64,000 nt of DNA from a virus, in IMG/VR virus record IMGVR_UViG_3300020215_000004. One strand, 5' to 3'. How positions within the stretch are numbered: the first letter of the stretch is position 1; every line of letters starts with the position of its first letter. Under the pieces are notes generated by a model. The model had not been told where the DNA came from, did not search any database, and worked only from the letters and a program-made list of their open reading frames with translations. The position numbers and the translations under genes were made by a program. Shown piece after piece: positions 5,851 to 32,833 of the stretch.

Positions 5851-5901
5851 TATTGCTCTTCGGCGCCACGGACGCTGGCGTTTTTGGAGAAGAGCAATCG
5901 C

Positions 5902-9973: not shown

Positions 9974-10207
9974 ATGGCGGGCGCCTGGGCCGCGTGCGAT
10001 CGCTGCGACTTCCGCGTCCGCCATGCAGAGTGCAGAACGGAATGGAGCGGCGCGTTCGTGTGCCCCAAGTGCTACGATCCGCGACCAGCTTGGCTCGACC
10101 CGCCCGTCATTGATCCGCTTGAGGGCGCGCCGCTGCCGAACGCGCGGCTGCAGAGAACGCCGATCTATCTCGACGACGACAACCCCGTAACGGCTGACGA
10201 TCTCTGA
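9974..10207 (+). CDS. small zinc-ribbon protein
   Basis: CDRCDF...CPKC four-Cys arrangement. SD present. Coupled to the adaptor gene. Confidence 0.5.
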   Translation: MAGAWAACDRCDFRVRHAECRTEWSGAFVCPKCYDPRPAWLDPPVIDPLEGAPLPNARLQRTPIYLDDDNPVTADDL

Positions 10208-12438: not shown

Positions 12439-13262
12439 TGGCGATCGGAACGGGGCTTGCCATTCTGGGGGCGGCTGGCATTGGCGCAGCGGCGTCCATG
12501 TCGGCGGCTAAGTCGCAATCGAAGGCCGCGCGCGAGGCGTCGGCTGCGGCGCGCGATGCGGCCAATCAGGAAATTCAGCTCCAGCGGGAAGCGCGCGACG
12601 AAGCGCGCAAGATTTTCACGCCATACAGCCAGGAAGGCTCGGCGGCGCGGCGCATGTACAATGCGGCTATGGGAATTGCGCCGGCGGCTGGCACGAGCGC
12701 GGGCGCTGGCGTCGCCGGCGCCGATACGCTGGGGGCTGCGCGCGCGGCATACGATGCAGGATTTGACGCTTCCCCATACTGGCGCGATGCCCAGTACGGG
12801 GCGGGCGAAGCCATGAACGCGCTCATGTCCACAAACGCTGCGCTGGGAAGGGGCGGCAGCGTCAATTCCGGCAAGGCGCTTCGGGCCACGCAAGACATTC
12901 AGACCGGCTATCGCGGCCAGGCCACGCAGAACTATCTGGCGTCGCTCGCTGGCATCTCGGACACGGGGCTGGTCGCGGATTCCGGCATCGCATCAGGCGG
13001 GCAGAACTACGCCAATATGAGCGGCAACGCGCTTCGCCAAGCGGCGGCCTTGCAGGGTCAGTATGGCCTCGCGGGCGCTGCGGCGATGGGCCAAGGCTAC
13101 GCCAACGCGGCGGGATTCTTGGGCTACGGGCTCGGCAATTATCGCCCTGGCGGCCAGAGCTATTTCTCCTACACGCCGCCGGCCCTAAGTCCGAACCTGC
13201 CTACAGGCGGCGCGCCGCTCTCGCCACTCGTCACCATTCCGCGCTTTACGCTGGGGGGCTGA
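12438..13262 (+). CDS. internal virion / ejection-type protein (putative)
   Basis: N-terminal TM-like segment (GLAILGAAGIGAAASM), then Ala/Gly/Gln-rich sequence. Coupled start. Confidence 0.45.
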   Translation: MAIGTGLAILGAAGIGAAASMSAAKSQSKAAREASAAARDAANQEIQLQREARDEARKIFTPYSQEGSAARRMYNAAMGIAPAAGTSAGAGVAGADTLGAARAAYDAGFDASPYWRDAQYGAGEAMNALMSTNAALGRGGSVNSGKALRATQDIQTGYRGQATQNYLASLAGISDTGLVADSGIASGGQNYANMSGNALRQAAALQGQYGLAGAAAMGQGYANAAGFLGYGLGNYRPGGQSYFSYTPPALSPNLPTGGAPLSPLVTIPRFTLGG

Positions 13263-14794
13263 TGGCGGAGATTTTTCGCTCCTTCGCGGAAGGGTTGTCT
13301 ACCGGCGCCGCTCAGCGCGATGATCGCGATCGCCGAAGCGCGCTCGATGAAGCGCGCCGCCTCTACGGCGCCGACAATTACGAGGGCGCCGAACAGGCGG
13401 CGCTTGCCTATAGCCCCGAACTTGCCGGCACGTTCAGCGCGCTGTCGGAGGCGCGCCGCAACCGCAACACGCGGGGCGCCGTCTCGGAGGCGATGCAGGG
13501 GCTTGATCCCAACGCCGCGCCGGACGCGCGTTTGCAAGCAGGCGCCACGGCAGCGCTTGAGGCGGGCGACACAGATCAATGGCTAGCGTTCCAGCAGGCG
13601 GCCACGCAGATGAGCGCCCAAGAGCGACAAGTCGCGGGAGAGCGCGCGCAGTTTATCGGCTCGGCTGCGGCCAGCCTGTTGAGCGTTCCCGTCGAGCAGC
13701 GCGCCGAGCAGGCTCGCGCGCTTCTGGCCGCTTCGCCTTATGCGAACGATGCGCAGATACTGCAAATGATCGACGACGCGCCTGAGCTCACCGACGAGGC
13801 GCTGAACGCGGCTGCGCGCAGCACTATGACCGCGGCGGAGATTTTGGGCTTCGATCGCCAGCAAGAGCAATTCGACCAACAGATTGCCCTTCAGCGCGCC
13901 AATGCCTTCGGTCCTCGCTTGAATGCGCCGCAAGTTCGCGCCTTCGGCAACGATTATGAGCGCGGCCTGCGACAAATCACCGACACGCTCGGCCCCCAAA
14001 TTATGAACGCCATGCCGTGGGCCACGCGCGTGGCGCAAGGCGGGCTCGTGCCTGAGGGCGTGTCGCGGGATTCTGCTCTCATCAACGACCAGGGCATGCT
14101 CCGCGCGGTGGCCCGCTTGCAAACCGGCGTCGGCGTGCTGACCGAAGGCGAAGTCCGCGACACGATCGGCAACGATGTCTTCAGCCAGATGCAGCGTCTG
14201 GGCGCCGACTTCCGGCTGACCACACCGCTCACGGAATCGAAGCGACAGGCGTTGGCCGCGCTCGTACAAACGGGCGTGACGAGGGCGTCAAATCAGGCCT
14301 GGAATTATCGCCAGAGTGCGCTTGATGAGTACCGCTCGCTCAGCGGCGGCCAAGACCCTGTCGGCTGGCAATTGCCGTCCATCGCGCATCCGGAGGACTT
14401 CGCCGCGCTCAACGCCGCAGAAGGCATGGCAGGCACGAATGGCGCGCCGGCTCTGACGCCGAACGCTATCCGCATTGCACCATCCGGCCGGCGCTATCAG
14501 TACATGGGGCCAGGCAACTGGTTGCCTGTCGCAGAGGGTGATGTGGAAGGCTATCAGGCTGGGCGTGAACAGCGCATTGCGCGCGGCGGATCGCCCACCG
14601 CGCCGAGCGCCTCGCAATCTGGCGGCTGGCGTCCTGGCCAGCCTGTGCCGCAAGCGGCGATCGAACGCGTGCGCTCCAATCCGGCGCTGCTGAATGAGTT
14701 CAAGCGCACGTTCAATCTATCTGATGAAGAGGCACGCCGTCTCACGGGCTTGGGTCAGAACGCGCGGCCGGATGGCCCGATGAGAAGGGGCTGA
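13262..14794 (+). CDS. internal virion / ejection-type protein (putative)
   Basis: 510 aa with ATGA coupling. Ala/Gln/Arg-rich helical composition. Lies downstream of the adaptor. Confidence 0.45.
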   Translation: MAEIFRSFAEGLSTGAAQRDDRDRRSALDEARRLYGADNYEGAEQAALAYSPELAGTFSALSEARRNRNTRGAVSEAMQGLDPNAAPDARLQAGATAALEAGDTDQWLAFQQAATQMSAQERQVAGERAQFIGSAAASLLSVPVEQRAEQARALLAASPYANDAQILQMIDDAPELTDEALNAAARSTMTAAEILGFDRQQEQFDQQIALQRANAFGPRLNAPQVRAFGNDYERGLRQITDTLGPQIMNAMPWATRVAQGGLVPEGVSRDSALINDQGMLRAVARLQTGVGVLTEGEVRDTIGNDVFSQMQRLGADFRLTTPLTESKRQALAALVQTGVTRASNQAWNYRQSALDEYRSLSGGQDPVGWQLPSIAHPEDFAALNAAEGMAGTNGAPALTPNAIRIAPSGRRYQYMGPGNWLPVAEGDVEGYQAGREQRIARGGSPTAPSASQSGGWRPGQPVPQAAIERVRSNPALLNEFKRTFNLSDEEARRLTGLGQNARPDGPMRRG

Positions 14795-14795
14795 T

Positions 14796-17099
14796 GTGGG
14801 CGCGTTCGACGACCTCATTGCCCCGGCGCCCCAGCGCGGCGGAGCGTTTGACGACCTGATTGCAGGCGGGACGCCGCAGTCGTTCAGCTCAAGCGAACCA
14901 TCGCGCTTGCAAGCCTTCGGCTATAGCGCTGCGGATGCCGCAAGTCTCGGTTTCGGCGATGAAGGCGCTGGCGTACTCGCTGGCGTGGGCGCCGTGCTCG
15001 GCGGGCGCGATTTTGCGTTGGCGTACCGCACAAGAGTCGATGCGGCGCGCCAGCGGCTCGAGGAGGCGCGTGCGCGGCATCCGATTAGTTCGGCTGCGGG
15101 AGCGCTCACGGGGGCAGGCGCAACCTTCCTGGTGCCTGGCGGGGCGGCGGCAACTGGCGCACGGCTTGGCCTCGGCGGCGTGGCCGCTGCGGGGCGCGCA
15201 GCGCAAGGCTTGGTGACAGGCGAGCGTCTACTGCCATATGGAAGCGCGCTCTTACGAGAGGCGGCGGGCCGAGGCGGGCGCGCGCTAGGTGCGCAGTCGC
15301 TGCTTGGCGCGGGTACTGGCGCAGCTTTCGGCGCTGCTTACGGCGCTGGTTCGGCGAATGAGAATGACAGGCTCCAGGGCGCCCTCTCTGGCGGTGCGTA
15401 CGGCGCTGCGCTTGGCGCGGTGGGGCCAGCCGCGTTCCAATTACTTGGAAACGCGGGTCGTATCGCGTATCAAAATCCTGTGCTGCGCACAGCCACAGGT
15501 GCGGCGGCGGGCGGCGGCGTTGGTTATTTCACTGGAGAGCCAGGAGATCGCGAACAGAACGCGCTCCGTGGCGCAGCATTTGGCGCAGGCGTGGGCGCGT
15601 TTTCCCGTCCGGCGCTCACCGCCGCGCGTCAAGCCTTCGCCAATCCGCTCGGCTACGCCAACCAAACCAGCATGGCGGGCGTCGTGCCACCCCCCCTTGG
15701 CGGCAGCGGCGGATCTGCTAAGCCCAATGTGCCGAAAGGCGTCGTGAGCGCGGTGGACCGCTTGCTTGGGCGTCAGCGCTCCGATGTTGAAAGCCTCGCA
15801 AGAAGCATTGAGACAGCGCGCGCCGAGCCGATGGGGCGCACGCTTGCCGACCTCGGCGGCGAACAATTCCTGAGCAAGGTTGACGCGCTCGCGCAACTGC
15901 CGGGACAAACCGGTCCGCGCGCCGCCGCGCTTGCTGAAGCACGCGTGCGCGACCTGCCTGGCCAGATTACCGGCGAACTGCAGTCCAGGCTTGGCGTCAG
16001 CCAGTCTCCGACACAAGCGCTCAACTCCTTGGCGGACGAGTATCGCCTCGTCTCGCGCGAACTCTATGAGCCGCTTCTACGCCAACCTGTGGCGCCACAA
16101 GCATTGGCGCGCGTTGAACCGATCCTCCAACGCTTGCCGGAAAGCGTTTTGAACCGCGCCAACCGCGTCATGGACGATCTTGCCCGCATCGATGGGATCG
16201 AGGTATCCGCCATGAGCGGCGCGCAACGTCTGCACTATCTCAAGATGGCGCTCGACGATGCGATCCAGGGCATGGAGCGCGTCGAGGGCCTTGGCGCGGC
16301 TCAGCGCGCAGGTTTGCGCCGTCTTAAGGGCGAGTTCCTGGAAGCCGTCGAGGGCGATCCGGCGCGCGGCATAGAGCCGATCATTCCCGGCTATCGCGAA
16401 GCACGCATGCGCTGGGGCGGCTTGAAGGACGCCGAGGAAGCGATCGATCTGGGCCGCAAGGCGCTGAGCCAGCGCCCGGAAGAAGTGCGCGAGATCATGG
16501 CGCGCATGACGCCATTTGAGCGCCAGCATTTCCAGATCGCCGCGGCCGACGAAATGATCCGCAAGGTGATGCGTGCTTCAGGCGAGGTGGGCCATCGTAA
16601 TGCCGCCAACCCGCTCAACAGCACCGAACTACAGAACGTCGTGCGCGAAATCTTCGATGATGCCGGCGAGGCGGAAGCCTTCCTGCGTATGCTAAACGAG
16701 CGCAACCAGCTCGCCCGCAACGCTACGTCCTGGATCGGCAACTCCGCCACAGCGCGCCGCGCAGCGCAGGCGGGCGATCAATTTCTAGCTGCGATGGCTG
16801 ATGCAGGCTTGACGGGAGCGTCGGGCAACCCTGGGGCGGCCGTAAGTCAAGCTGGCCGCAGCGCGCTCAACGCTCTCCGGGGCCGCTTCTTCGAGCAACA
16901 GAACGACGAACTAGGCAACGCACTGTTGCGCGTCGTGGACGAGGGCACCACGGAAGACCGCGCGTTTATTCGCGAACTCATGCGCGAGCTGCGCAAACGC
17001 GAGCGGGCGCGGGCGTCACGTGCGGAATCTGCGGGGCGTGATGCAGCTCTGAATGTCGTCGGCGTCGATACTGCGCGGGACGCCTATCAGCCATATTAG
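14796..17099 (+). CDS. large internal virion / ejection-type protein (putative)
   Basis: 767 aa. Tandem GAFDDLIA peptide at the N-terminus, long Gly/Ala-rich TM-like stretches, then a helical C-terminal half. Confidence 0.45.
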   Translation: MGAFDDLIAPAPQRGGAFDDLIAGGTPQSFSSSEPSRLQAFGYSAADAASLGFGDEGAGVLAGVGAVLGGRDFALAYRTRVDAARQRLEEARARHPISSAAGALTGAGATFLVPGGAAATGARLGLGGVAAAGRAAQGLVTGERLLPYGSALLREAAGRGGRALGAQSLLGAGTGAAFGAAYGAGSANENDRLQGALSGGAYGAALGAVGPAAFQLLGNAGRIAYQNPVLRTATGAAAGGGVGYFTGEPGDREQNALRGAAFGAGVGAFSRPALTAARQAFANPLGYANQTSMAGVVPPPLGGSGGSAKPNVPKGVVSAVDRLLGRQRSDVESLARSIETARAEPMGRTLADLGGEQFLSKVDALAQLPGQTGPRAAALAEARVRDLPGQITGELQSRLGVSQSPTQALNSLADEYRLVSRELYEPLLRQPVAPQALARVEPILQRLPESVLNRANRVMDDLARIDGIEVSAMSGAQRLHYLKMALDDAIQGMERVEGLGAAQRAGLRRLKGEFLEAVEGDPARGIEPIIPGYREARMRWGGLKDAEEAIDLGRKALSQRPEEVREIMARMTPFERQHFQIAAADEMIRKVMRASGEVGHRNAANPLNSTELQNVVREIFDDAGEAEAFLRMLNERNQLARNATSWIGNSATARRAAQAGDQFLAAMADAGLTGASGNPGAAVSQAGRSALNALRGRFFEQQNDELGNALLRVVDEGTTEDRAFIRELMRELRKRERARASRAESAGRDAALNVVGVDTARDAYQPY

Positions 17100-17182: not shown

Positions 17183-17671
17183 ATGCTTAGGCGCGGCCCC
17201 CTGTCTATCATCGCAGCATCGCTGATTTGCATCGCGAGTTTGATGCTGTTCGCCGTTAGTGTGTTCGCTCAGACTCCTGAGGACCATTGGCGCGTCGGAG
17301 AAGCGGATAGGTATGTCTCTTATATCGACACGCAAAGGATCGAGACATCTGGTTTGCATAGACGCGCCTGGCTCTGGATCTTCAATGCGCCTTCGCCTCA
17401 ATCTCCGCACATCTACATGAATTCCAGGGTGCTCGTCGAGTTTGATTGTCCTGATCGCCGTCGACGATTCCTCCAGGGAACGCGGTATTCAGGCACAGAT
17501 GTAGTCGATGAGATTTGGCGCGCCAGCGAATGGCAATACGCTGTGCCAGACAGTGTTGGCGAGCGGGAGATGCGCTTTGTTTGCTCAAATGCAGCGGAAC
17601 GTGGCGGTCTGGGGGCAAGAGTCTTTAGCCCGCTATCGGATGCCATGCTGATCTTCTCGTCTAGCCCTTAA
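17183..17671 (+). CDS. secreted protein, surface-adhesin protein E-like (moron)
   Basis: Own SD (AAAGGAG). Signal peptide ending VFAQ. Pattern YVSYIDTQRI...RRAWLWIF...VEFDCPDRRRR...W..VPDS...FVC. Visibly more AT-rich than its flanks. Confidence 0.5.
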   Translation: MLRRGPLSIIAASLICIASLMLFAVSVFAQTPEDHWRVGEADRYVSYIDTQRIETSGLHRRAWLWIFNAPSPQSPHIYMNSRVLVEFDCPDRRRRFLQGTRYSGTDVVDEIWRASEWQYAVPDSVGEREMRFVCSNAAERGGLGARVFSPLSDAMLIFSSSP

Positions 17672-17691
17672 GGCTTGATCGCAAATCCCAG

Positions 17692-17717
17692 CCTCGCCCG
17701 GTATGTGCCGGCCGAGG
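17692..17717. terminator. hairpin between convergent genes (possible bidirectional terminator)
   Basis: CCTCGCCCGG-TATGTG-CCGGCCGAGG, a 10-bp stem with one mismatch. No clear U-tract. Confidence 0.3.
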
Positions 17718-17745
17718 CGCGTAGTCTTGGCGCTCTCGAAAGCCA

Positions 17746-18117
17746 TCACGGCGGCGTGCCATGCGTAACGTCAATCTGAAAGCCAGTAACCTCAACAGAT
17801 TTTGTTGCTGCGTCAGTGATCGTGCACTTGAACGTTGCTTGGCGAACAACGTCAGTGCCATCGGACTGCCAGCCTGTCGTCTGGCTCGTGTTGTTGAGCG
17901 CCGTAATCTGAGTGGCGCCGGCTGTGCGCGCCCACGCGTAAGTGTAGGGCGCCACGCCGCCAAGCACTGTCACACTGCTTGTGCCTGATAGCGTCTGCGT
18001 GCCGTTGGCGACGCTCTCCCCAACAGCGCCGCCGCTTCCGACAGAAGCAGTTAGTGGTCGTCTCAATGCCGCCGCCGCTCCGGCCGCGCTCACGTGTATA
18101 CCCCCGAAATCCCCCAT
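17746..18117 (-). CDS. Ig-like/SprB-repeat-like domain protein, possibly the -1 frame extension of the tail fibre
   Basis: GGVAPYTYAW motif. ATG 18117 has no SD and overlaps the fibre ORF end by 28 nt, across two G5 runs. Confidence 0.4.
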   Translation of the reverse strand: MGDFGGIHVSAAGAAAALRRPLTASVGSGGAVGESVANGTQTLSGTSSVTVLGGVAPYTYAWARTAGATQITALNNTSQTTGWQSDGTDVVRQATFKCTITDAATKSVEVTGFQIDVTHGTPP

Positions 18118-19082
18118 GTCGTGCTGGCGACTTTTTCGACCAAGACCGAGGACGACGCGCCCACTGTACGGGATCCGGTGCCAGCCGTGCCATCAAGTCG
18201 TTGCAGCGTGTCGGTCGTTATGGCGACTGTGACGTTAGCAGCGCCCGCGCCATTGATGATCCGGAACCAAAAACCCACCGGCAGAGCGAGGTTTGCGTTG
18301 GAATTGATCGTCAGCGTGCGTGCGTTGGCGTCTGTGTGATAGAACGTCTTGCCCCAATCCGCTTGCACGATGGTGTGGTTGCCGCTGTCGAGTTCGGTCT
18401 TCTGGGGAAAGCCGCGGAAGCCAAACGCGCGGGCGTTAGCCGGCGTTGTCACATCGGCGCCCACGACGCCGCCAGCTCCTGTGGCCTCCGCAACAGCGGT
18501 CGAGTTCGCATAGAGCGTCGGAGTGTTGGCGGATGGCAGCCGCCAGCCGTTGGTGACGGCAATGTCGAAGAGCTGTGCCAGCGTCTGGCGTTTCCAGCGC
18601 TTGCTGTCGGCCGACAGAATGATCGTCGTGCCGTTGTCCGCCGAAGAGGTGTCCGTGGAATCGTAGCGGAACAAACCCCCGCCATCGCCGGCGCTAGTGT
18701 TGGAGATGACGGCTATAAGGGCTGGCGGCGTGGCGCCGAACGTTGTCGCTTGGAGCGTCGCGATCGAAGTCACGATGCCGACCGTATCGGAGGCCACGGA
18801 CGCGGTTTGCACTGGATTGTCGGTGCGCCAGGTCGATCCGTCCGAAAGTTTGATGATCCGTTTGTAGGAGAGCGATGGATCCAGGAAGTGCTTGGGAAAG
18901 ATACCCTTGGCGTCGGTGGCGTTCCCGCCGTTGAGCACCGCCCCTAGCGACGTTGTGAGGGCAGCGTCCGAATAGACGTTCTGCGCCACATCGGAGAGGT
19001 TGTAGTACTCGCATGTGGCGCCCACGCGGACGCCGGACGAGTCGATGACCTGGAGAAACTGTGGGCCGGCCGGTGTCGCCAT
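18090..19082 (-). CDS. tail fibre protein
   Basis: 330 aa. SAGDGGGLFRYDSTDTSSADNGT motif, as in the N-terminal regions of phage tailspikes and fibres. Thr/Ser/Ala/Gly-rich. Confidence 0.55.
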   Translation of the reverse strand: MATPAGPQFLQVIDSSGVRVGATCEYYNLSDVAQNVYSDAALTTSLGAVLNGGNATDAKGIFPKHFLDPSLSYKRIIKLSDGSTWRTDNPVQTASVASDTVGIVTSIATLQATTFGATPPALIAVISNTSAGDGGGLFRYDSTDTSSADNGTTIILSADSKRWKRQTLAQLFDIAVTNGWRLPSANTPTLYANSTAVAEATGAGGVVGADVTTPANARAFGFRGFPQKTELDSGNHTIVQADWGKTFYHTDANARTLTINSNANLALPVGFWFRIINGAGAANVTVAITTDTLQRLDGTAGTGSRTVGASSSVLVEKVASTTWGISGVYT

Positions 19083-19117
19083 GCCCGGATTTTAGGCGAG
19101 CGGGCCCGTTGGCGGGG

Positions 19118-19417
19118 TTAGGAGATGATGACCCGATCCTGAACGCGCCGCCAGTTTGCCGACCCATCCCAGAAAACCAACGTCGCTCCTCCGGTCTCGT
19201 TCGAGCAGAGCGCGATGGCTGGGCCGTCCGGGGTGATGGCGTTGAGTTCGGCAACGGTCTTGGACTTGATCGGCAGGTAATCGGCCGTCTCGCCGCCGGT
19301 ACGATCGATCAAGTCGTTGAGCCGCTCGAGCGCGTCGCGCGCCAAACTCAGCAACCTGCTGACGAATGGCTTTGACGGATCGAAATAAACAACCGCGCGC
19401 GTGGTGATGATGCTCAT
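19118..19417 (-). CDS. small tail-associated protein
   Basis: 99 aa, ATGA-coupled to the ParB-GNAT ORF, directly upstream of the fibre. N-terminus MSIITTR resembles the tailspike N-terminus MSIITRR. Confidence 0.45.
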   Translation of the reverse strand: MSIITTRAVVYFDPSKPFVSRLLSLARDALERLNDLIDRTGGETADYLPIKSKTVAELNAITPDGPAIALCSNETGGATLVFWDGSANWRRVQDRVIIS

Positions 19418-20751
19418 GCGGACATGCGCTGCGCGAGCGCCTCCCTCAGCGAGAGGGCGCCGGCAGGGAGCCCTATTGCGAGCGCCGCAAGGCCACCGCT
19501 GCCGTTAAGACCGTTGGGAGCGGGCGGATTTTTGTCGAAGTAAAGCGATGCGTCGTAGGCGTCGATGCTCTCGGCGCCGCGCGCTTGGGCGGCGGCGAGC
19601 CGGTGATGCCCATCAATGATGTCATAGCCGCCGCGCTTGTTCCGGCGCACGATGATCGGGTCGTGATCTGGGTTCGCGACATACTCGTCCACCCAGAGCT
19701 GTTCGGGCGCCGTGTGATCCGTTCGCCGGATTTGGCCGAGCGGGACTGAACGCCTCGGCATCGGTTGCGTCGCAAGGCCAGTTTCGTCGAGGCGGCTGAG
19801 ATTGACTCGCGCCCGGCGCAGGGCGCCGATGACAAGACTGGCCGGCCCGCCGCCCGGCCCAAACCCGCCCTCATCCGCCAAGTCTTGCAGGCTCGGTCCG
19901 AACTGTCCCCCGCCTCCCGCTCCTCCGTCAGGCAATGCGGGAGGGCGTGGTTCAGTGGCGACGCGGAAGCGTCCAAACGGCAACGGCTCGACAGTGTAGC
20001 CGCGCCGCTCCAGGGCCGCGTAAATGTTGCGCGCGTCCCCTGAGAGTCCCGTTCCGCTTTCCACCCAGGGCACGCCGTTCGCACGAGCGTCGGCAAGCAT
20101 TTGCTCGTAAGCGCGGATGCCCAAGCCCTTACCACGCATCTCCTCTGGCAAGTATGATCCCATGACGTGCCAGCTATTCGGGTCCACCGGCTCCGGCCCA
20201 GGCCGTCTCTGGTAAGAAAGCGGCGCTACGCCATCCACACGCGAATGAACGGTATCGCCGCGCTCGAAAAGCCCGGTCCCGAACTGTCCCCCGCCCGCAT
20301 CTCCCGCGTCGAGCCGTTCTGGACGCCCTGTGAACTGATCCAGGTCCACCGTTTCTATGTCGCGTTGTCCGCGAAGGCGCGCAGCTTCCACACGATGGCG
20401 TCCGTCCACGAGCGCGCCGGCGCGCGTAAGAACGGGCGGGATCGGCGTCTCCCGCGCGGCGAACTCAGCGGCCAGTTCAGGCTGCTCCAAAAACTGCGGA
20501 TTGCGTGAGAGGATGTCGTCGATGGCTTGGCGGCCGACTTGCACGGGGCCGTCTTCGTAACCGCGCGGACCCCAGCGGCTGAGGTCGATGCGAACAGGCT
20601 CCGGCAGTTCGTCGAACGAAACGGAGCGCGGGCCAAAATCCGGAAACTCCCCGCTGACGCGCTCCGCAAGCGCCTGGCGCAATGACGGCGCGCGCTCGGG
20701 GCCGCGCGTAGCCCCGCCCATCAGCGCTAGGAGAGCGCGCCTGAGGCTCAT
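19414..20751 (-). CDS. ParB/Srx-like - GNAT - ParB/Srx-like three-domain protein with LRxAL termini
   Basis: ALVDGRHRVEAARLRG and YDIIDGHHRLAAAQARG (ParB-type DGxHR). Central MRGKGLGIRAYEQML (GNAT motif A). Termini MSLRRALLAL / SLRQALAERV and LSLREALAQRMSA. Confidence 0.6.
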   Translation of the reverse strand: MSLRRALLALMGGATRGPERAPSLRQALAERVSGEFPDFGPRSVSFDELPEPVRIDLSRWGPRGYEDGPVQVGRQAIDDILSRNPQFLEQPELAAEFAARETPIPPVLTRAGALVDGRHRVEAARLRGQRDIETVDLDQFTGRPERLDAGDAGGGQFGTGLFERGDTVHSRVDGVAPLSYQRRPGPEPVDPNSWHVMGSYLPEEMRGKGLGIRAYEQMLADARANGVPWVESGTGLSGDARNIYAALERRGYTVEPLPFGRFRVATEPRPPALPDGGAGGGGQFGPSLQDLADEGGFGPGGGPASLVIGALRRARVNLSRLDETGLATQPMPRRSVPLGQIRRTDHTAPEQLWVDEYVANPDHDPIIVRRNKRGGYDIIDGHHRLAAAQARGAESIDAYDASLYFDKNPPAPNGLNGSGGLAALAIGLPAGALSLREALAQRMSA

Positions 20752-22178
20752 TTCACAATCTCGTTCGCCCAGACGCCTGAGAAGGCAAAGCCAACCGGAT
20801 CTGGGATGCGGATTTTCACCAGCAAACCGTCAGCGGCGTTGGCGAGGCCAAGCCGATGCACCGTTGGGCGTACATTGTAGTGGCCCGCCGCGCCCAAGCT
20901 CACTTGCCGCTCGACACCAAGCTGCACGAGACTGTCTATGGTCCCGCCATCACGGTAGAAGGTGATGTAGGCTTTCGGAGCCGATCCCGTTCCAGAGAGC
21001 GGTTGGCCGAATGTTTTGATATCCAGCGTAATGCTCGAGATGGGCATGGGCTCGGAAACGGCGATGTGCGCCATGATGATGCGCTCGATCGGCGAGCCGT
21101 CATCGGTGTATTTGTCGTTGTCCCAAGTGTAGATCGTGTCGTCGTCGCTCGCGGCAACGACGTGCCGGCCGAAGAAGCGAGCGTAGTGTGCGATGTCGAA
21201 ACGTTCTTCGCCCATGGCCGTGCGCCGATGCCAGCGGCGCGTGAGAGCGTCGAACACATAGGCTTGGCCGTCCGGCAGCCGGCACACGAAATACTGATGG
21301 CTGCCGTCTCCATAAGCGAAGCACTGCACAGCCGAACTCTCCGGCTCGCCGAACTCCTGCAACGCAGCTTCCAGGTCGCGGTTAACGACGCGCTGAGGCA
21401 CATAGCCGTTGAGTTCGTAAACCGCGCGATCATCGCCGACGAACATGGCGTAGCTGTCGAGCTTGGCCCAGGCGTCGCGGCCGACAATGCCGCGGTTGAT
21501 GATGATCGATGGCAGCGTGTCGAAAGCATCGGCGTCCGATCCGCCCACGGCGCGCCATGGCTGTGTTGAGTCCGCGCCGAAGTGAAAGATGTCGCCGCCG
21601 ATCTCGGCTTGCGCGCGAATCTCGTCCGGATAGCGGGCCGAGGCGGCAAAGCCGGTCGCCGGCCAGTTCGTTGCATCTCCCACTGCGCTCCAGTCGAACG
21701 TGTCCGATCCCTGTTCGCTGGTCAGGATGCGGTCGGCGAGCGAGGCCAGCGTGTAGGCGTCCGAAGGAAAGTCCGCATCGACGTTAGTCGTGAGCGAAGA
21801 GCCGTCCCAAACGTAAAGCGTGCCCGATGAGAGGATGACGAGATTGGCGCCCAGCCGGTCCATAAGCACGCGGCCGGTGCCGGCGATCGTCCCGCGCGAT
21901 GTTGCGGTCCAGGTTTCATTGATGGAATAGAGCGTGTTGCCGGCGACGACGAACAGAAGGCCGCTTTGCACGCCGGGACGTGAGAACACGCCTCGTATGA
22001 GGCTGCCCGCGGCCGGCGTGACGCGCGCCGTCATGCCTTGCGTCGGCACGATCACGAATGGGCTTTGCTTGCCAGCGCCTTCGGCTTGTGGCTCGAGCGT
22101 GACGTTCTTCAGCACCATGGGCACAAGGCCCTTGGCGGAGCGGTCGTCCGAGGTCATGGCCAGTGGGAAGTAGGTCAT
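20748..22178 (-). CDS. tail hub protein, P22 gp10-like (tail accessory factor)
   Basis: 476 aa, the same size class as gp10. Repeated beta-propeller-like blades. Partner of the gp4-like adaptor. Translationally coupled on both sides. Confidence 0.5.
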   Translation of the reverse strand: MTYFPLAMTSDDRSAKGLVPMVLKNVTLEPQAEGAGKQSPFVIVPTQGMTARVTPAAGSLIRGVFSRPGVQSGLLFVVAGNTLYSINETWTATSRGTIAGTGRVLMDRLGANLVILSSGTLYVWDGSSLTTNVDADFPSDAYTLASLADRILTSEQGSDTFDWSAVGDATNWPATGFAASARYPDEIRAQAEIGGDIFHFGADSTQPWRAVGGSDADAFDTLPSIIINRGIVGRDAWAKLDSYAMFVGDDRAVYELNGYVPQRVVNRDLEAALQEFGEPESSAVQCFAYGDGSHQYFVCRLPDGQAYVFDALTRRWHRRTAMGEERFDIAHYARFFGRHVVAASDDDTIYTWDNDKYTDDGSPIERIIMAHIAVSEPMPISSITLDIKTFGQPLSGTGSAPKAYITFYRDGGTIDSLVQLGVERQVSLGAAGHYNVRPTVHRLGLANAADGLLVKIRIPDPVGFAFSGVWANEIVK

Positions 22179-22747
22179 CAGGCCGCCCTCGCTCGATTTG
22201 CAAGAGCCTCGCGAAGCGTCATGCCAGCCGCGCCGCCGCCTCCAAGCATTAGAAGCAACTGCCTGATCTCGACTGGGTCGTTGATTACAAACGTGCCGTC
22301 CTTGCGCCGCATGAAGTTCTGCGGCCCCATGTCATAGAAGTAATTAGGCGAACCTGGCGGCAGAGTTTCCTTAAGGTGCTCGTCGAGACTGCGCATAGTC
22401 TCCAGCAACGGCGCGCGTTGTGGATCATCGTCAGCGAGCCCCGTTAGGAAGAACTCTCCATTTTCCCGCCCTATCCGTGCGCGTGTATCGTTCGGCTCTA
22501 ATTTGTCCGCGCTAAACCGAAGGAGCGCGCCGGCGCGCTCCATCTCGCTCGGATTTGGCAAGTGACGCGCAGCAGGCAAACCTTGCGCATGCTGCGTGCG
22601 AGCCCAGCGCAAAAATGCTTCCGTAACCGGGTTAGGCGCCATCTCCACAACCACGCGTTCGGGGTCGATGGCGTCTGCAAACACCGTCTTGGAGCGCCCG
22701 CGCCCTATCTCAATGAGCGCGCGACGAAGGGCGGCGGACGCGCTCAT
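22178..22747 (-). CDS. minimal protein-kinase-like fold protein with LRxAL termini
   Basis: IGRGRSKTVF (Gly-loop-like). YDMGPQN-x12-ND reproduces the D-x4-N-x12-D catalytic/Mg-binding spacing of kinases. Termini AALRRALIEIG and MTLREALANRARAA. Confidence 0.4.
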   Translation of the reverse strand: MSASAALRRALIEIGRGRSKTVFADAIDPERVVVEMAPNPVTEAFLRWARTQHAQGLPAARHLPNPSEMERAGALLRFSADKLEPNDTRARIGRENGEFFLTGLADDDPQRAPLLETMRSLDEHLKETLPPGSPNYFYDMGPQNFMRRKDGTFVINDPVEIRQLLLMLGGGGAAGMTLREALANRARAA

Positions 22748-23253
22748 GCGCCCATCCGTTCAGCAAGGATTTCCCTGAGCGTGATCGCGCCAACGGGCGC
22801 GGCCACACCAAGGCCAGCCAACAGATCGGCGCTCTCTAGCCGCGCCGGATCGAACGCTGCGAAGATTGAACGGATGTCGGCGGGATTTTCCACCCGCACG
22901 TCGCTGTCGCGAAAGCCTGTAGGAATGGCTTTGTCGCGCCGCACGAACACCGGAATGACGTTCGCGCCCTCAGCGCCGCGGACACCGTTCTCCATTTCGG
23001 CAATATCCGACGCCCTTCTGGCGTCCCGCGTGAGATAGACGCCTGGCCCCCAGCCGGCGTGACGCGCAGGCTCGAACGCGTCGAACTCGCTCCTTGTGCC
23101 ATGGTAGAAAACGTCGTCGGTGTCGAAACCTTGCTCGCGAGCACGGGAGAGCCGTGCGCCGTTTTCATCCAGAGCGCCAAAGAGCGAACGCGGCCAGCGG
23201 CCCGCCGTGGCCATCAGCCTTTCAGCCAAAGCTCTACGCAGGGCCGCACTCAT
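22744..23253 (-). CDS. H-Y-E type ADP-ribosyltransferase-like protein with LRxAL termini
   Basis: FYHGT ... GVYLTRD ... VRVENP fits the H / Y / E triad context of PARP and polyvalent-protein ARTs. Termini AALRRALAERLMA and ITLREILAERMGA. Confidence 0.4.
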   Translation of the reverse strand: MSAALRRALAERLMATAGRWPRSLFGALDENGARLSRAREQGFDTDDVFYHGTRSEFDAFEPARHAGWGPGVYLTRDARRASDIAEMENGVRGAEGANVIPVFVRRDKAIPTGFRDSDVRVENPADIRSIFAAFDPARLESADLLAGLGVAAPVGAITLREILAERMGA

Positions 23254-23453
23254 GCCATCTGCTCAGCGAGCGGAGGCTTGCCGGCTCGCAGCAAACCGCC
23301 CGACGCCGGCGCCGCACGGCCCAGCATCCGCGCCAATGCTTCGATCACGGCCGCTCGCGACATGCAGAAAAGTATAAGCGTCAGTGACTTGCTGGCGGGC
23401 TTGCGCTGCCGCCCAACCCCGCCGCTCGCTCCGGATCGCGATAATCGCGGACC

Positions 23454-26015
23454 ATGAGCATCATCACTCGCCGCGGCATCTTGCAGGACGGCATCGGCAG
23501 AGAGTACGTCCGCTCCAGCTACGGCGGTCGGCGCAAAATTCTCTCGGACTGGATTGGCGATCTCGCCGACAGCACGACGCAGACCGTCGCCACCAAGGCG
23601 GCGCTCAAAGCGCTCGACACGAGCCTTGGCTATGCTTCCGTATTTGTTCAGGGCCGCACGTCAGCCGGTGACGGCGGCGGCGGTCTCTTCCGCTGGTCTT
23701 CCTCAAACAACAGCGCCAATGTAACGGCCGACACGCTCGAAGGCATCTACATTGCCCCAGATAGCGACACGGATGGGTCATCCGGCGCGTGGGTTCGCGC
23801 GGATGTGAACTTCATCCTGCCAGAATGGTTCGGCGGAAAGGCCGATAACTCGACTGACAACGCGACGGTCTTCACAGCGACCGAGACGATGGCGGATCGG
23901 CTGGACAAACGGCTTGTCTGGTGGCTGGGCGAGAACTATCGCTTCAACTCAACAGTCACAGCCACGAAAGACAGTATTCATCACGAGGGCGCTGGCGCGC
24001 GCCAGACCGCTTGGACGTTCAACCATACGAACGACGGGGTGCAGATCGGAACCAGCGCGCTTCACGTGCGCGACAATCGCTTTGACGGCATCCGCTATCT
24101 GCAAGCTAGCGGCTCCGGCTATGCGTTCAACTACTACAATGGCCGCAATCTTCAGATCATCGATGCGGCGGGCTCCTCCGTTCGCAACTGGATGAAGGTC
24201 GGTAGTCAGTTTATCGCAGTTTCTGGGGCGGTGAACAATGGCTCAGGGCTCATCCGCCTCACGCTTGCAAGCGATGCATTTGCCACGGGTGACATCGTTT
24301 ATGTGAACGCGGTTGGTGGCGTTAGCGCGGCTACTGGACAATGGACGCTGACCCGCATCTCTTCTGGTGTTTACGATCTACAGGGCTCGACCTTTGCTGG
24401 TGCATATACTTCAGGCGGGCGCGTCGCGCCACACGTGACGCAGCTCACGCATGAATGGGATGGCAATAGCATCACGACGAACGCCACCTATGCGTTTGAC
24501 ATCTACAGCATCAGCGGCACGGTGCGCTTTGGGGGTAAGCCTCTCTGGGAAAACGGCAACACATCGAGCGCCATCCCAGTTGACGGCACCATCTGGATGA
24601 ACATTCGCCGCGCCACGACCGTCTATGATCGGCTAGACTGGATCGAGGGCGCGACTGGAGGCCGACTTTACGACATATCTATCAAGATTGACAACACGCG
24701 AGTCGTTGCGATCGAAATCACGCGCGGTCATTTTGATGGACCGAAGACAGCTTTTCTGCACGTTGATCTTTCGAACGCGGATGCCACGGGCGGCGGCTTT
24801 GGCGATTGGCGCTTCCCTGGATATACACGTGTTGGTGCGGATGGCACGCACTGCAAGCAACTTGTGAAAATAACAATGGGCGCCGGAACAGGCGATCTCC
24901 TGTTCTTTGATAGATTGAACGCCAGCGGCGTTTTCCCATCTGATGCTGGGTCGAACACTCCTGCGATCGACATTGATGGCGGCTCCGGCGGCATTAAGCG
25001 CGTGAGCTTTCATGGCCTTTGCTGCAATTTGCGGCCATCTGCCGGCACGCACGATATTGGACGCATCAAGGGCAAGGTAAACATCATCGTCGATGATACG
25101 CAGGCGCTGAAGCAGGATGGTGCTGGCGCGGCGCGTGACGTTTGGCGGCTGGACAGCGATTATGTCGGGTCAGCCGTTATTAATTCAGTGCAATCGGACG
25201 GTCTCTCGGGTCACTGCCTCACTGCCGTAACTGGCATCACTGCGTCGACCGCAAGGATCATCGGCCGTGACCTGCAAAATCTCACGACCGAAGCAAACCG
25301 GGTCAGCGACGCCGATGGAATTGTTCTGGTTGACGTGGCGCCATCGCTTGGCGGCGTGAAAGCTGCAGACCTTGCATCAGTGGCGGGCACGACAGATCTT
25401 TCGGCCGTGCGCGGGGATTTTGTCGATATCACCGGCACGAATGGGATTACGGGGCTTGGCACAGAACGCAAAGGCCGCCGCGTCTGCTGCCGGTTCACCG
25501 GCGCTCTCACAATGACACACAACGCCACGTCGCTCATTCTGCCGGGCGGTGTAAATCGCACGACTACAGCAGGCACGATTGCCGAGTTTTTGTCGCTCGG
25601 TTCTGGGAACTGGGTCTGCACCTCGTGGATGAACGGTGATGATGCGCTTCTAGCGGGTGGCGAAGGCGCATCGGGTCATCGGGCGGCGCTCATTCGCGGC
25701 ATCCGACCTGTCTTGTCGATGACGGACGACAGCGCCATTTCGAGCGACGCTATTGCGTCGGGCACGTCGGGCCTGCTGATCCTAACATTGACGAGTGGCG
25801 AATATCTGCTTGCGCAGTTCGAAACGTCCGGCACCGCAACGCTGACATCGATCTCCGCTCACGCCAATATCAACGTCACGACGGGCGCGCTTACGGGTAC
25901 GACAGGCACTGACGCCAAGTTCAATGTGGCTATCCACACTGATCGCAAGATATATTTCGAAAACCGGCTTGGCGCCACCACGGTGCTGACAGCGTTTCTC
26001 ATGTCATCTCTCTAA
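23454..26015 (+). CDS. tailspike / depolymerase with right-handed beta-helix
   Basis: 853 aa. TSAGDGGGGLFRWSSSN ... PEWFGGKADNSTDN (pectate-lyase-3-type N-terminal signature). Long repetitive beta-rich body. Confidence 0.65.
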   Translation: MSIITRRGILQDGIGREYVRSSYGGRRKILSDWIGDLADSTTQTVATKAALKALDTSLGYASVFVQGRTSAGDGGGGLFRWSSSNNSANVTADTLEGIYIAPDSDTDGSSGAWVRADVNFILPEWFGGKADNSTDNATVFTATETMADRLDKRLVWWLGENYRFNSTVTATKDSIHHEGAGARQTAWTFNHTNDGVQIGTSALHVRDNRFDGIRYLQASGSGYAFNYYNGRNLQIIDAAGSSVRNWMKVGSQFIAVSGAVNNGSGLIRLTLASDAFATGDIVYVNAVGGVSAATGQWTLTRISSGVYDLQGSTFAGAYTSGGRVAPHVTQLTHEWDGNSITTNATYAFDIYSISGTVRFGGKPLWENGNTSSAIPVDGTIWMNIRRATTVYDRLDWIEGATGGRLYDISIKIDNTRVVAIEITRGHFDGPKTAFLHVDLSNADATGGGFGDWRFPGYTRVGADGTHCKQLVKITMGAGTGDLLFFDRLNASGVFPSDAGSNTPAIDIDGGSGGIKRVSFHGLCCNLRPSAGTHDIGRIKGKVNIIVDDTQALKQDGAGAARDVWRLDSDYVGSAVINSVQSDGLSGHCLTAVTGITASTARIIGRDLQNLTTEANRVSDADGIVLVDVAPSLGGVKAADLASVAGTTDLSAVRGDFVDITGTNGITGLGTERKGRRVCCRFTGALTMTHNATSLILPGGVNRTTTAGTIAEFLSLGSGNWVCTSWMNGDDALLAGGEGASGHRAALIRGIRPVLSMTDDSAISSDAIASGTSGLLILTLTSGEYLLAQFETSGTATLTSISAHANINVTTGALTGTTGTDAKFNVAIHTDRKIYFENRLGATTVLTAFLMSSL

Positions 26016-27958
26016 CGAGCAGCTGAGACCAAACGATCCGCTAAACCGAGATTGCCAGCGACAACTGCGGCGCCATCGTAGGAAAGATGGGCTGCATCCC
26101 GAAATAGCAGCGTATTGCCGCGTCTCGTGACGCATACGGCCTCAGCGCACATTGCCGTTGTCGGCCAAACTACTGGGATGGCCGCCTCTGCAGCAGCGCG
26201 ATCTAGGTATGCGAGCACGTGGCGCCGCCTGCGACGCCACTCGGTCTCTGGAAAGCGGCAATCGGCTTCCTCATCTGACACGAGGCCGCGAATGAGGCGC
26301 TCTTGGCACTGGGCGTAGTCGTCTCCAGTGAACGGAATAGGCCCCAGCATGACTACACGTTTGCCCGCCGCGCGAAGTTCTCGCGCTAAGACAACGTAAG
26401 ATGCTTGGAGCTGCGCAGGTTGCGCATAAGAAGAACTGAGCACCACTATCTCTATCGAGGGCGTGCGCTCAACGTACGCCAACACATCTGCATTGAATGC
26501 GCGGCACAATTCCAGAGATCGGGCGCGCGCCGCATCGGCGTGCGGATTGACAAACTCGCCGTACATCGGAGCACAACTTGGTCGCGTTGCCTGAAGCATT
26601 CCGCGCGGACCAAGCTGTCGCCCAAGCGCCTCGCCCCACATCATGGCGTTGGAGTCGCCCCAGAGGATTACGCGCGGTCGCGCAGTCGTTCGGCAAAGCT
26701 CTACAATGTCGGCGAACGTGACGGGGCCGTTGGCGCTGCACTGTTCGCCGAGTCCGTAATTCGGGCGGAAGATGTGCCGGAAATCAGCATCGGCGAGCGG
26801 ATCGCCAGTGGACGGCGTGAATGTCGAGGCGAAAGCGCTCAAGCCATTGCTTGGTGCGGTGACATAGAGGCTTCCTGCTACGAGCACGGCCGCCGCCGTG
26901 GCAAGGCCAGAGGTTAGACTTATGCGCGCTTTCGTGAAGCTGCGCCGGAACGGCTCTTCGATCCAGGTGTAGAGCGCAAGGCTTAAAGCAATAGACGCCG
27001 CAAGAGCCGCTAACGTCCCCCACTCCGGAAGATCTGGCCAGCGAGCTCGCATCAGCACGAGCACCGGCCAATGCACGAGGTAGAGAGAGTAGGAGAAATT
27101 TCCCACCCACGCGACGGCGCGGACGGGAGGGCTCCGTTCCGCTTCTCCGCCCGTTGCGCCGAGAATGAGGACCAGGGTTGCAAGGCATACAATCGCGGAG
27201 TCCACGCCGGGGTGCGGCCCTCCGATTGGAAACGCCGGGGTTGCCAGCAAGACGATCAGTGCGGGAACGCGGAGCCAGGAAAGCAAGGGCGCGCCCATGA
27301 ACCGCGAGGCGACAAGCGCGGCAAAAGACCCGAGCGCCAACTGCCAAGCACGCGATGGGAGAAGATAGAACGCCGCGGAAGGATCGATCGTCAACAGGTA
27401 GACAGTCAGCGCCGCGCTTCCTGCGAGGATCACAGCAATGATCGCCAGCCATGCTTTGCGCGGCGCGAACGCCAGCAGCGCGGGCATCACCAGATAATAC
27501 TGCTCCTCCAGCGAAAGCGACCAAAAATGTAGGAGCGGTTTCGTCGCGGCCTCGCTGTCGAAATATCCAGCCTGCTGCCAGAAAATGAAGTTGGATGAAA
27601 ACGTGATGGCGCCGATGGCTTGGCCCCTCAGCTCATCCAGCGCCGAGTCCGACACACAGAAAGGTGCCGCAATCAGCGTCAAGCCGAGAACAAGGAAAGC
27701 CGCCGGCAAGAGCCGTTTAGCGCGGCGATAGTAGAACGATGCGAATGAGAACGAGTGCGCGTCGATGCTCTTCGCGATTAGCCCCGTAATCAGAAAACCA
27801 GAGATGACAAAGAAAACATCGACGCCAAGATACCCAGCCGGAAGTGGCAGTCCTGCGTGATATAGCACGACTGCCAGCACGGCGAAGCCGCGTAACGCCT
27901 GAATGTCCGTCCGCAGCTCGTTCTTTGGCGCGCCAGCCGGAGCGACATATGGGGTCAT
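26012..27958 (-). CDS. acyltransferase family 3 (OafA/YrhL-like) with C-terminal SGNH domain; O-antigen modification moron
   Basis: ALRGFAVLAVVLYHAG...GVDVFFVISGFLIT, about 10 TM segments, C-terminal VILWGDSNAMMWGEAL (SGNH block I). Confidence 0.8.
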   Translation of the reverse strand: MTPYVAPAGAPKNELRTDIQALRGFAVLAVVLYHAGLPLPAGYLGVDVFFVISGFLITGLIAKSIDAHSFSFASFYYRRAKRLLPAAFLVLGLTLIAAPFCVSDSALDELRGQAIGAITFSSNFIFWQQAGYFDSEAATKPLLHFWSLSLEEQYYLVMPALLAFAPRKAWLAIIAVILAGSAALTVYLLTIDPSAAFYLLPSRAWQLALGSFAALVASRFMGAPLLSWLRVPALIVLLATPAFPIGGPHPGVDSAIVCLATLVLILGATGGEAERSPPVRAVAWVGNFSYSLYLVHWPVLVLMRARWPDLPEWGTLAALAASIALSLALYTWIEEPFRRSFTKARISLTSGLATAAAVLVAGSLYVTAPSNGLSAFASTFTPSTGDPLADADFRHIFRPNYGLGEQCSANGPVTFADIVELCRTTARPRVILWGDSNAMMWGEALGRQLGPRGMLQATRPSCAPMYGEFVNPHADAARARSLELCRAFNADVLAYVERTPSIEIVVLSSSYAQPAQLQASYVVLARELRAAGKRVVMLGPIPFTGDDYAQCQERLIRGLVSDEEADCRFPETEWRRRRRHVLAYLDRAAAEAAIPVVWPTTAMCAEAVCVTRRGNTLLFRDAAHLSYDGAAVVAGNLGLADRLVSAAR

Positions 27959-32829: not shown

Positions 32830-32833
32830 CTTC

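Follow-up and report, generated by a model that had tools for sequence, protein, structure and literature searches.

The window studied here is the whole of a 64,000-nucleotide stretch of viral DNA (IMG/VR record IMGVR_UViG_3300020215_000004), in which a minus-strand run of seven open reading frames (ORFs), 23253-17746 in the ORF listing, is set within a plus-strand head, ejection and tail region. We found that this block combines tail hub and fibre genes with three enzyme-like genes, which encode a protein resembling ADP-ribosyltransferases (ARTs), a minimal kinase and a protein with a probable GNAT between two ParB/Srx modules, and that each of these proteins begins and ends with the same kinds of short peptide. 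On balance, we favour the reading that the three belong to a split polyvalent-protein set, in which tagged enzymes would be expressed late, loaded by means of their tags and ejected to modify the host.

Terminal tags of the enzyme-like proteins

The N-terminal tag of every putative cargo polypeptide, in the window and in its relatives, reads M-x(1-8)-LR[RQ]AL or the variant LIEALAARLA, and the C-terminal tag consists of a Gly/Ala-rich hydrophobic stretch followed by [ST]LRE[AI]LxxR and the stop. The initial annotation had pointed to LRxAL termini on these ORFs, and they proved to be real and nonrandom: the motif lies in the first 30 residues of seven window ORFs, against a mean of 0.96 in shuffles, and at both ends of three window ORFs, against none in 500 shuffles. 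The codons differ among the copies, so that the peptide is conserved and the DNA is not, and selection therefore acts on the peptide. Both tags were predicted to be helical by AlphaFold2 (AF2), and the N-terminal one is modelled as an amphipathic helix. In relatives with fused modules, the tags stand at the polypeptide ends, a further copy (SLR[SN]AL) follows the N-terminal ParB, and the junctions use RTGP[DN]AG. No tag was seen on the hub, on the fibre or on any large ejection-like protein. Two other identities were considered for these peptides and rejected. A Tat signal does not fit the N-terminal tag, as many LRQAL/LREAL copies have no twin arginines and no hydrophobic h-region after them, and a recombination site acting at the DNA level is contradicted by the differing codon usage of the copies.

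The same tags were found on three plus-strand ORFs of the window, namely a 163-aa ORF, a zincin-like ORF with LPD23 and HEGQH, and a 206-aa protein (p206). The last has a long glycine zipper and is kept in all close relatives (counterparts in L005, L007, L012 and L013) between the adaptor and ejection-protein genes, and we regard it as a candidate for the partner that docks or anchors the tags. The zincin-like protein may be the processing peptidase of the tagged set. In the 163-aa ORF, the C-terminal tag (ALTLREALAQRMSA, then stop) sits in the -1 frame at 2819-2863; the frame break may stem from an error in the assembly or from a frameshift mutation, or it may mark a programmed -1 slip at GCAGCGCG.

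Terminal signatures were also seen in a wider set. Among the ART-containing proteins of L012-L089, which range from 160 to >1300 aa, many end in [DN][IL]LAG, a Gly/Ala-rich hydrophobic stretch of 12-15 residues and a charged tail, and a subgroup begins with MAIGxRLRGILDEL. Judged by its sequence, the C-terminal tag looks like a lineage version of this broader signature, and conserved terminal signatures may be widespread in this protein class.

Enzyme-like domains between the tags

The 189-aa ORF was initially described as a minimal kinase from its Gly-loop-like IGRGRSKTVF and its D139-x4-N144-x12-D157 spacing, and this description stood up well. Its AF2 model reached a predicted local distance difference test score (pLDDT) of 89.8. 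With this model, Foldseek searches of the PDB placed HopBF1 first (2e-4), then OspG and then kinases only, and searches of BFVD placed phage protein kinases on top (3e-7); the template modelling (TM) scores of the matches were modest (0.37-0.57). In an alignment of 15 homologous sequences, H62, P64, D139, N144, D157 and P158 are invariant and G15, G17 and K20 nearly so. The kinase profile also aligns to the G-loop (GRGRYG) and catalytic loop (HRDLNSRN...ISD) of BMPR2 with an E value of 3.4e-4. On the strength of the model, we are confident in predicting a minimal protein kinase without a C-lobe. The lysine conserved in this family is K20 in the G-loop, an arrangement that presumably recalls that of WNK kinases. 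Matches of the kinase profile to Protein A were rejected as a compositional coincidence (HLPN..., DPSQSA repeats), since the structural searches all give kinases.

The kinase family has no Pfam match, and tblastn against 50,697 phage records returned nothing. A word-indexed search found 3 relatives, while an exhaustive profile search found 31, in which the kinase domain forms part of proteins 791-3934 aa long, with polyvalent proteins of 1164-3934 aa among them. LPD22 occurs in two of these large proteins (P0012 and P0014), and P0014 also contains Zeta_toxin. The link to polyvalent proteins that had been drawn at the outset thus gained support, both from these giant LPD22/Zeta_toxin proteins and from the nearby window ORF with LPD23 and HExxH. 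The C-lobe-truncated kinase family described in 2017 has as its signature a Glu before strand 2, a Gln in the last N-lobe strand and a His-Asp insert (PMC5512222). The family reported here, with no Pfam match, may be separate from it.

The 169-aa ORF matches Pfam ART-PolyVal (PF18760) with 37.3 bits (cutoff 31.2; E = 5.9e-09), which upholds the ART part of an initial assignment as an H-Y-E ART with the motifs FYHGT, GVYLT and VENP, all of them present. However, the match spans only positions 8-85 of the 140 in the profile (the first 60%), so that the protein does not have the full domain. The alignment shows that about 50 residues between beta-3 and the last strand are missing here and in the counterparts upstream of the hub, and the ART of relative L007 (224 aa) covers profile positions 8-132. 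Moreover, the published active site of ART-PolyVal, which belongs to the Tox-ART-HYD2 clade, is H-Y-D, with H on strand 1, Y on strand 2 and D on strand 5 (PMC5512222). H51 is present in the window protein (R in some relatives) and Y73 is invariant, but the catalytic-acid column, which has D in three relatives, holds N123, with E122 adjacent. On sequence grounds, the glutamate of VENP is a possible catalytic acid. In relatives, the slot upstream of the hub holds counterparts that are 42-54% identical to the 169-aa ORF, and some 330 homologues of this ART were collected. A search of the PDB with the ART profile gave nothing, and PDB searches with the single sequences of the ART, kinase and 445-aa ORFs gave no informative matches.

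The 445-aa ORF had been read as ParB-GNAT-ParB from two DGxHR motifs (116-120 and 380-384) and RGKGLG (206-211), which are all present. The second ParB/Srx module was recovered by three routes. PHROG ParB families match it at 9.5e-09 and 1.1e-07; its profile finds SbnI (9.8e-6) and ParB (1e-3) in the PDB; and Foldseek returned Noc, sulfiredoxin, ParB, KorB and SbnI at 3e-5 to 1e-3 (region pLDDT 70-87). The first module aligns to the second family in hhalign with a probability of 96.2% and an E value of 2.4e-9, DGRHR being aligned to DGHHR, and its region of the AF2 model has a pLDDT below 40, so that the model lends it no support. The curated thresholds were not reached by this ORF (ParB_N 18.9 bits against 26.3; TIGR00180 21.4 against 58.45), and no other ParB-type Pfam family matched at E <= 0.1. 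The middle module is probably a GNAT, which is as far as the original reading can be followed there. Its Acetyltransf_1 match is sub-threshold (13.8 bits against 20.7; Pfam E = 0.07), motif A (R206-G-K-G-L-G211) aligns to motif A of 1y9k (PDB E = 0.34), phrog_37402, a PHROG profile of 2639 positions, matches the region at 4.9e-7, and Foldseek gave GNAT matches of 3-6e-3 at a region pLDDT of 50-68. The GNAT region alone as a query found no homologues.

Gene order, relatives and the inverted block

The gene order, the strand switch and the start/stop overlaps of 1-4 nt noted in the initial annotation were borne out by the ORF listing and the junction sequences (table 1). Genes on both sides of the block are on the plus strand (14796-17099, 17183-17671 and 23454-26015). 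ATGA overlaps of 4 nt occur at 22747/22744, 20751/20748 and 19417/19414, a TGATG overlap of 1 nt occurs at 22178, and the 99-aa and fibre genes lie 35 nt apart. The junction between the fibre and Ig-like genes reads ACG TGA, and an in-frame GTG at 18093 would give a GTGA overlap. Because the counterparts in relatives also use GTG, the Ig-like ORF probably starts there (115 aa), the listed ATG at 18117 being less likely, and this gene too would then be coupled. Such overlaps are common throughout the genome (e.g., 2334/2337, 6939 and 13262) and in the relatives. Therefore, they are not special to the inverted block and are silent on stoichiometry, and the earlier argument that coupling to the hub gene implies stoichiometric incorporation into the virion fails.

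Table 1. Features of the window, with positions counted from its first nucleotide
Feature	Position	Strand	Basis or remarks
ART-PolyVal-like ORF, 169 aa	23253-22744	-	ORF listing, Pfam
169-aa ORF, N-terminal tag (residues 1-14)	23212-23253	-	
169-aa ORF, ART core (residues 48-135)	22849-23112	-	
169-aa ORF, C-terminal end (residues 143-169)	22747-22827	-	Gly/Ala stretch and TLREILAERMGA
Predicted minimal protein kinase ORF, 189 aa	22747-22178	-	ORF listing, AF2/Foldseek
189-aa ORF, kinase core (residues 12-162)	22262-22714	-	G-loop G15/G17/K20; D139-x4-N144; metal-binding D157
189-aa ORF, tags		-	N-terminal MSASAALRRAL; C-terminal GGGGAAGMTLREALANRARAA
Tail hub ORF, 476 aa	22178-20748	-	ORF listing, PHROG
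ParB/Srx-GNAT-ParB/Srx ORF, 445 aa	20751-19414	-	ORF listing, profiles
445-aa ORF, two N-terminal tags (residues 1-32)		-	
445-aa ORF, ParB/Srx-1 (residues 47-140)	20332-20613	-	DGRHR 116-120
445-aa ORF, first linker		-	DAGGGQFG
445-aa ORF, GNAT-like module (residues ~160-268)	19948-20274	-	R206-x-x-G-x-G211
445-aa ORF, second linker		-	PDGGAGGGGQFG
445-aa ORF, ParB/Srx-2 (residues ~300-405)	19537-19854	-	DGHHR 380-384
445-aa ORF, C-terminal tag		-	Gly/Ala stretch and SLREALAQRMSA
Conserved structural-module ORF, 99 aa	19417-19118	-	Synteny with relatives
Tail fibre ORF, 330 aa	19082-18090	-	Conserved N-terminus and weak PHROG matches
Ig/PKD-like ORF as listed, 123 aa	18117-17746	-	phrog_2973, weak SprB/PKD
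Convergent intergenic region	17672-17745		Left border; GC-rich hairpin
Divergent intergenic region, 200 nt	23254-23453		Separates the ART gene from the 853-aa tailspike-like gene (plus strand)
Portal	55-2337	+	
N-tagged ORF, 163 aa	2334-2863	+	Just after portal; stop TAA 2823-2825
LPD23 and HEGQH zincin-like ORF, 331 aa	4855-5850	+	Pfam LPD23 1.7e-25; N-terminal tag MAGLRQAL; C-terminal tag region ALREALAN...GLALAGDITLREAV
Putative scaffold	5884-6939		
Capsid-like	8297-9208	+	
Adaptor-like	10207-11349	+	
p206, 206 aa	11405-12025	+	N-terminal tag, long glycine zipper, second tag GLRQALAERMA
Ejection-protein-like	12306-17099	+	
Signal-peptide-like ORF, 162 aa	17183-17671	+	MLRRGPLSIIAASLICIASLMLFAVSVFAQ; exactly at the left inversion junction
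Tailspike-like, 853 aa	23454-26015	+	
O-antigen acetylase moron	26012-27958		Convergent with the tailspike gene
tRNA-Pro and tRNA-His	32753-32907		
Integrase	36575-37690		
RecT	46514-47611		
Primase/helicase	55521-57134		

Eight related viral contigs (L002-L007, L012, L013, L015, L016) share one gene order on a single strand: adaptor, p206, ejection-like genes, one or more ART-type ORFs, hub, one or more variable ORFs, a 97-aa gene, an optional insert, fibre, a small ORF and tailspike. Since these relatives have the same genes on one strand, the block of the window is a lineage-specific inversion, and all that lies between the 767-aa and tailspike genes was inverted as a unit. The only inverted repeats found at its borders were short imperfect pairs. 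The 162-aa ORF at the left junction is probably a moron, because the relatives have no counterpart of it. At the left border, the hairpin (RNA fold -35 kcal/mol, z = -2.05) may perhaps act as a bidirectional terminator; the right border is the divergent region, where a promoter is presumed.

Around the hub, 99-aa and fibre genes, which are conserved, the slots filled by enzyme ORFs vary. L012 and L013 have two and three tagged ORFs, respectively, in tandem between the 767-aa-like gene and the hub, abutting or overlapping by 0-4 nt, and neither has any downstream of it. In L002, L005 and L007, a multidomain protein of 397-607 aa overlaps the hub stop, and its modules, joined by RTGP[DN]AG linkers, include ParB, one or two ARTs, GNAT-like modules and unknowns. 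The hub-downstream protein P0011 contains the kinase domain in fused form, and the unrelated contig L001, with an SU10-type adaptor, has a ParB-like ORF, a 58-aa ORF and the kinase, then the hub. In more distant phages, the same ART stands beside the LPD23-zincin and portal genes. A GIY-YIG/NUMOD3 homing-endonuclease gene lies between the 97-aa and fibre genes of L005 (9649-10623) and L003 (4212-5183), which is another sign that these intergenic slots tolerate insertion. In Pseudanabaena phage Pam1 (L009), a structurally characterised cyanopodophage, an annotated acetyltransferase (8454-8873) lies between the hub ("needle head") and needle genes.

Of the structural genes in the block, the 476-aa ORF had been likened to P22 gp10, and it matches phrog_578, "head closure Hc3," at 5.6e-61 over residues 4-472 of 476. 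It has no Pfam match at E <= 0.1 itself, while counterparts with 70% identity carry PF11134 (Phage_stabilise), and it is ~26% identical to annotated gp10-like "stabilization" proteins. By sequence similarity, then, it is a P22 gp10-type tail hub. The 99-aa protein matches no Pfam or PHROG family; its counterparts of 95-100 aa (38-55% identical) are found in all relatives upstream of the fibre and downstream of the hub, either directly or after one or two enzyme ORFs. Fibre residues 1-94 are 69-74% identical among relatives and the rest diverges, with weak PHROG tail fibre and depolymerase matches at residues 88-169; a conserved N-terminal anchor with a variable distal part is the pattern of tail fibres. 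The Ig-like ORF matches phrog_2973 (Hoc-like) at 3.1e-07, and SprB and PKD weakly.

Two repeated sequences were also noticed in the block. A perfect 15-nt inverted repeat, CATGAGCATCATCAC, occurs at 19404-19418 and 23453-23467. Its arms span the start codons of the 99-aa and the 853-aa tailspike-like genes, which both start with MSIIT, and one arm coincides with the right border of the block. The repeat may have been left behind by the inversion, or the two genes may share a translation-start context. A perfect 16-nt GC palindrome, GAGCGCGCCGGCGCGC, is present twice, at 20410-20425 in the ParB-GNAT-ParB gene and at 22525-22540 in the kinase gene, and the latter copy was also scored as terminator-like.

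The DNA derives from a metagenomic contig of 67 kb. Because it encodes an integrase, RecT, a primase/helicase and an O-antigen acetylase moron, the element, a P22-like podophage, is temperate, and it is possibly serotype-converting. A near-identity DNA search of the block against the 50,697 phage records found no match and no close cultured relative, and a search of GTDB genomes for the hub with single-sequence patterns found no relatives and thus did not identify the host.

Packaging and ejection compared with other explanations and known systems

We propose that the block is a hub-and-fibre module in which enzyme genes, as cargo, would sit in variable slots between the structural genes. The cargo would consist of solo or short polyvalent domains, that is, a shortened ART-PolyVal, a C-lobe-less kinase and ParB/Srx-GNAT-ParB/Srx. 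These genes would be expressed late together with the structural genes, and the terminal tags would dock their products in the procapsid or pre-ejectosome, with the capsid interior, the scaffold, the portal or p206 as docking partner. The enzymes would then be expelled with the DNA and would at once modify proteins or nucleic acid of the host. ADP-ribosylation, phosphorylation, acetylation and NTP-dependent nicking or phosphotransfer by ParB/Srx are the predicted activities, and blunted defence or takeover of the host is the predicted effect. What we infer here comprises the late timing of expression, the packaging and ejection of the proteins, their enzymatic activity and targets, and what the tags do. 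The packaging and ejection steps are suggested by the domain repertoire and its residence in polyvalent proteins, by the conserved interleaving with structural genes and by the precedents of T4 Alt, P1 DdrB and phi24B gp47.

Several observations weigh against this proposal. Recognised ejection-protein genes lack the tags, which consequently are not a general virion signal, and translational coupling, being genome-wide, is uninformative on packaging. No sigma-70 consensus was found in 23254-23453, and the promoter and terminator scan remained at chance level. As for the enzymes, the 169-aa ART may be inactive, judging from its shortening relative to the Pfam model and the Asn in the conserved acid column. 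The canonical beta-3 (VAIK) lysine column of the kinase holds E35, and E, D, Q, K, R or S in homologues. The AF2 model of the whole 445-aa protein is poor (pLDDT 50.6), and its GNAT and ParB-1 calls are the weaker ones, being sub-threshold or indirect.

A bolder version of the proposal is that the two tags form a portable loading and ejection signal, so that any enzyme placed between them, as a cassette ORF by the hub, would be loaded and injected, with p206 as a dedicated adaptor. We regard this as possible and put it forward tentatively. If it were true, this clade would run a split polyvalent-protein system with plug-and-play cargo slots.

Considering that T7 gp0.7-type kinases, which are early and nonpackaged proteins, are among the structural neighbours of the kinase, the enzymes might instead be late accessory proteins that act unpackaged in the producing cell, where they would modify virion proteins or phage DNA ahead of packaging or, late in infection, stop abortive-infection defences. 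Their genes would then lie in a tail region that tolerates recombination, and the tags would help to localise the proteins or to build complexes, for example at the membrane or where assembly takes place. Small enzyme ORFs near the hubs of distant phages that are not known to package them, such as the Pam1 acetyltransferase, fit this explanation, and the C-terminal hydrophobic Gly/Ala stretch of many ART-containing proteins, with its charged tail, could be a membrane-association element. However, the same domains reside within giant LPD-bearing polyvalent proteins, a class that is found in virions (PMC5512222; phi24B), the ORFs interleave and overlap with structural genes in every relative, and the ART of distant phages adjoins zincin and portal genes, the position of MuF-type cargo. 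We therefore consider action in the producing cell unlikely, although it deserves to be taken seriously.

It is still less likely that the tagged proteins are external tail decorations, anchored by their tags to the hub or fibre base and acting on the cell surface in the manner of tail-associated depolymerases or lysins. Their genes do flank the hub and the fibre, whose conserved N-terminal anchor shows modular attachment, but ART, Ser/Thr-type kinase, GNAT and ParB/Srx domains need cytoplasmic cofactors (NAD+, ATP, acetyl-CoA) and intracellular targets, none of the tagged ORFs has a carbohydrate- or peptidoglycan-active domain, and the head and ejection modules and the vicinity of the portal also contain tagged ORFs (2334-2825, 4855-5850 and 11405-12025). 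Very improbable, in our view, is the explanation that the three enzyme ORFs are decaying pieces of one former polyvalent gene and LRxAL a functionless leftover of its linkers. The fused versions in relatives, the shortened ART with Asn in the acid column and the tagged ORF at 2334-2825, whose C-terminal tag is out of frame, would agree with decay. Yet none of the three lacks a clean start, a clean stop or either tag, their junctions read ATGA or TGATG, and the kinase retains all conserved catalytic columns. Moreover, L012, L013 and L007 have kept tagged solo ORFs in tandem, and the linkers of the fused relatives are RTGP[DN]AG, while LRxAL is mainly terminal, the SLR[SN]AL after the N-terminal ParB being the sole exception.

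Returning to the split polyvalent-protein set, its interest lies in how cargo is chosen. The selection of phage proteins for capsid loading and injection is known in few systems (the T4 capsid targeting sequence and the P1 Dar hierarchy), and a short tag common to at least six unrelated proteins of one phage would make such selection directly testable. Relatives retain the tag and vary the enzyme framed by it, and such a tag could serve for the delivery of designed proteins along with phage DNA. Around its tail hub gene, the locus further shows how effector domains fuse and split, and the kinase adds to the polyvalent repertoire a compact family (~150 residues) that keeps its catalytic residues and has no Pfam model.

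The closest known system is that of the phage polyvalent proteins. Iyer, Burroughs, Anand, de Souza and Aravind (2017; PMC5512222) described these proteins together with solo versions of their domains near late genes and close to a main locus, covered C-lobe-less kinases, GNATs next to ARTs and ParB domains, and suggested cassette-like recombination; polyvalent proteins were predicted to be packaged and delivered with the DNA. The initial annotation, which did not recognise the ParB-GNAT-ParB architecture or the small kinase as characterised, thus overstated their novelty, since C-lobe-less kinases, GNATs, ARTs, ParB domains and solo versions had all been described (PMC5512222). We found no description, however, of cassettes that surround a P22-type hub and fuse and split rapidly, of a two-ended tag on every cargo polypeptide together with a tagged glycine-zipper protein, or of a kinase family that has no Pfam model and no match in the 50,697 phage records. 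Both systems have HYD2-clade ART, C-lobe-less kinase, ParB/Srx, zincin metallopeptidase and LPD domains in a late or structural gene context, and the GNAT of the published set has a probable equivalent in the window. The definition of polyvalent proteins (2-15 effector domains per polypeptide) covers the 445-aa ORF with its three modules, whereas the 169-aa and 189-aa ORFs are single-domain solo versions that individually fall outside it. In contrast to the published proteins, those of the window are mostly single-domain ORFs around a P22 gp10-type hub and are not encoded beside MuF or portal genes. The kinases also differ in origin, the window family coming from a 63% G+C metagenome and the 2017 family from Verrucomicrobia, Chlamydia and Bacteroidetes. 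The ParB modules of the window match generic ParB_N and no other ParB-type family at E <= 0.1, and the N- and C-terminal tags are not mentioned in the 2017 paper (PMC5512222).

P1 DdrB and T4 Alt have been shown to be packaged or injected (PMC5512222). The likeness is that, in the T4 and P1 Dar-DdrB systems, the head takes up enzymes (in T4, an ART) that are then injected along with the DNA, and that a short terminal peptide, the capsid targeting sequence, directs incorporation in T4. T4 Alt, however, is a member of the R-S-E clade, and the prohead protease cleaves its targeting peptide, which is N-terminal, while the window proteins have tags at both ends and no prohead protease was identified in this P22-like phage. 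For the kinase, the best structural matches (12-18% identity) are HopBF1/OspG and small phage kinases, such as that of Xylella phage Cota and the T7 gp0.7 type. These are likewise proteins of 170-200 aa with most of the C-lobe missing, and those from bacteria are delivered into a target cell as effectors. Unlike in them, the beta-3 lysine position of the window kinase is occupied by a variable residue, K20 in the G-loop is conserved, and the gene lies in a late tail module and not in a type III secretion system locus or among early genes.

In the cargo loading of encapsulins, a flexible Gly/Ala/Pro-rich linker and a short terminal peptide direct unrelated enzymes into an HK97-fold shell. The resemblance to the tags is one of analogy only, with no sequence relationship, and the window tags are at both termini. 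The phi24B protein gp47, a polyvalent protein of 2811 aa, was found by proteomics in the virions of a podophage (bioRxiv 10.64898/2026.04.10.717836). Like the phage of the window, phi24B is a temperate short-tailed phage with an LPD and metallopeptidase combination, and gp47 is proposed to be encapsidated and ejected; it unites different LPD domains in a single polypeptide of 2811 aa, where the window has several small tagged ORFs.

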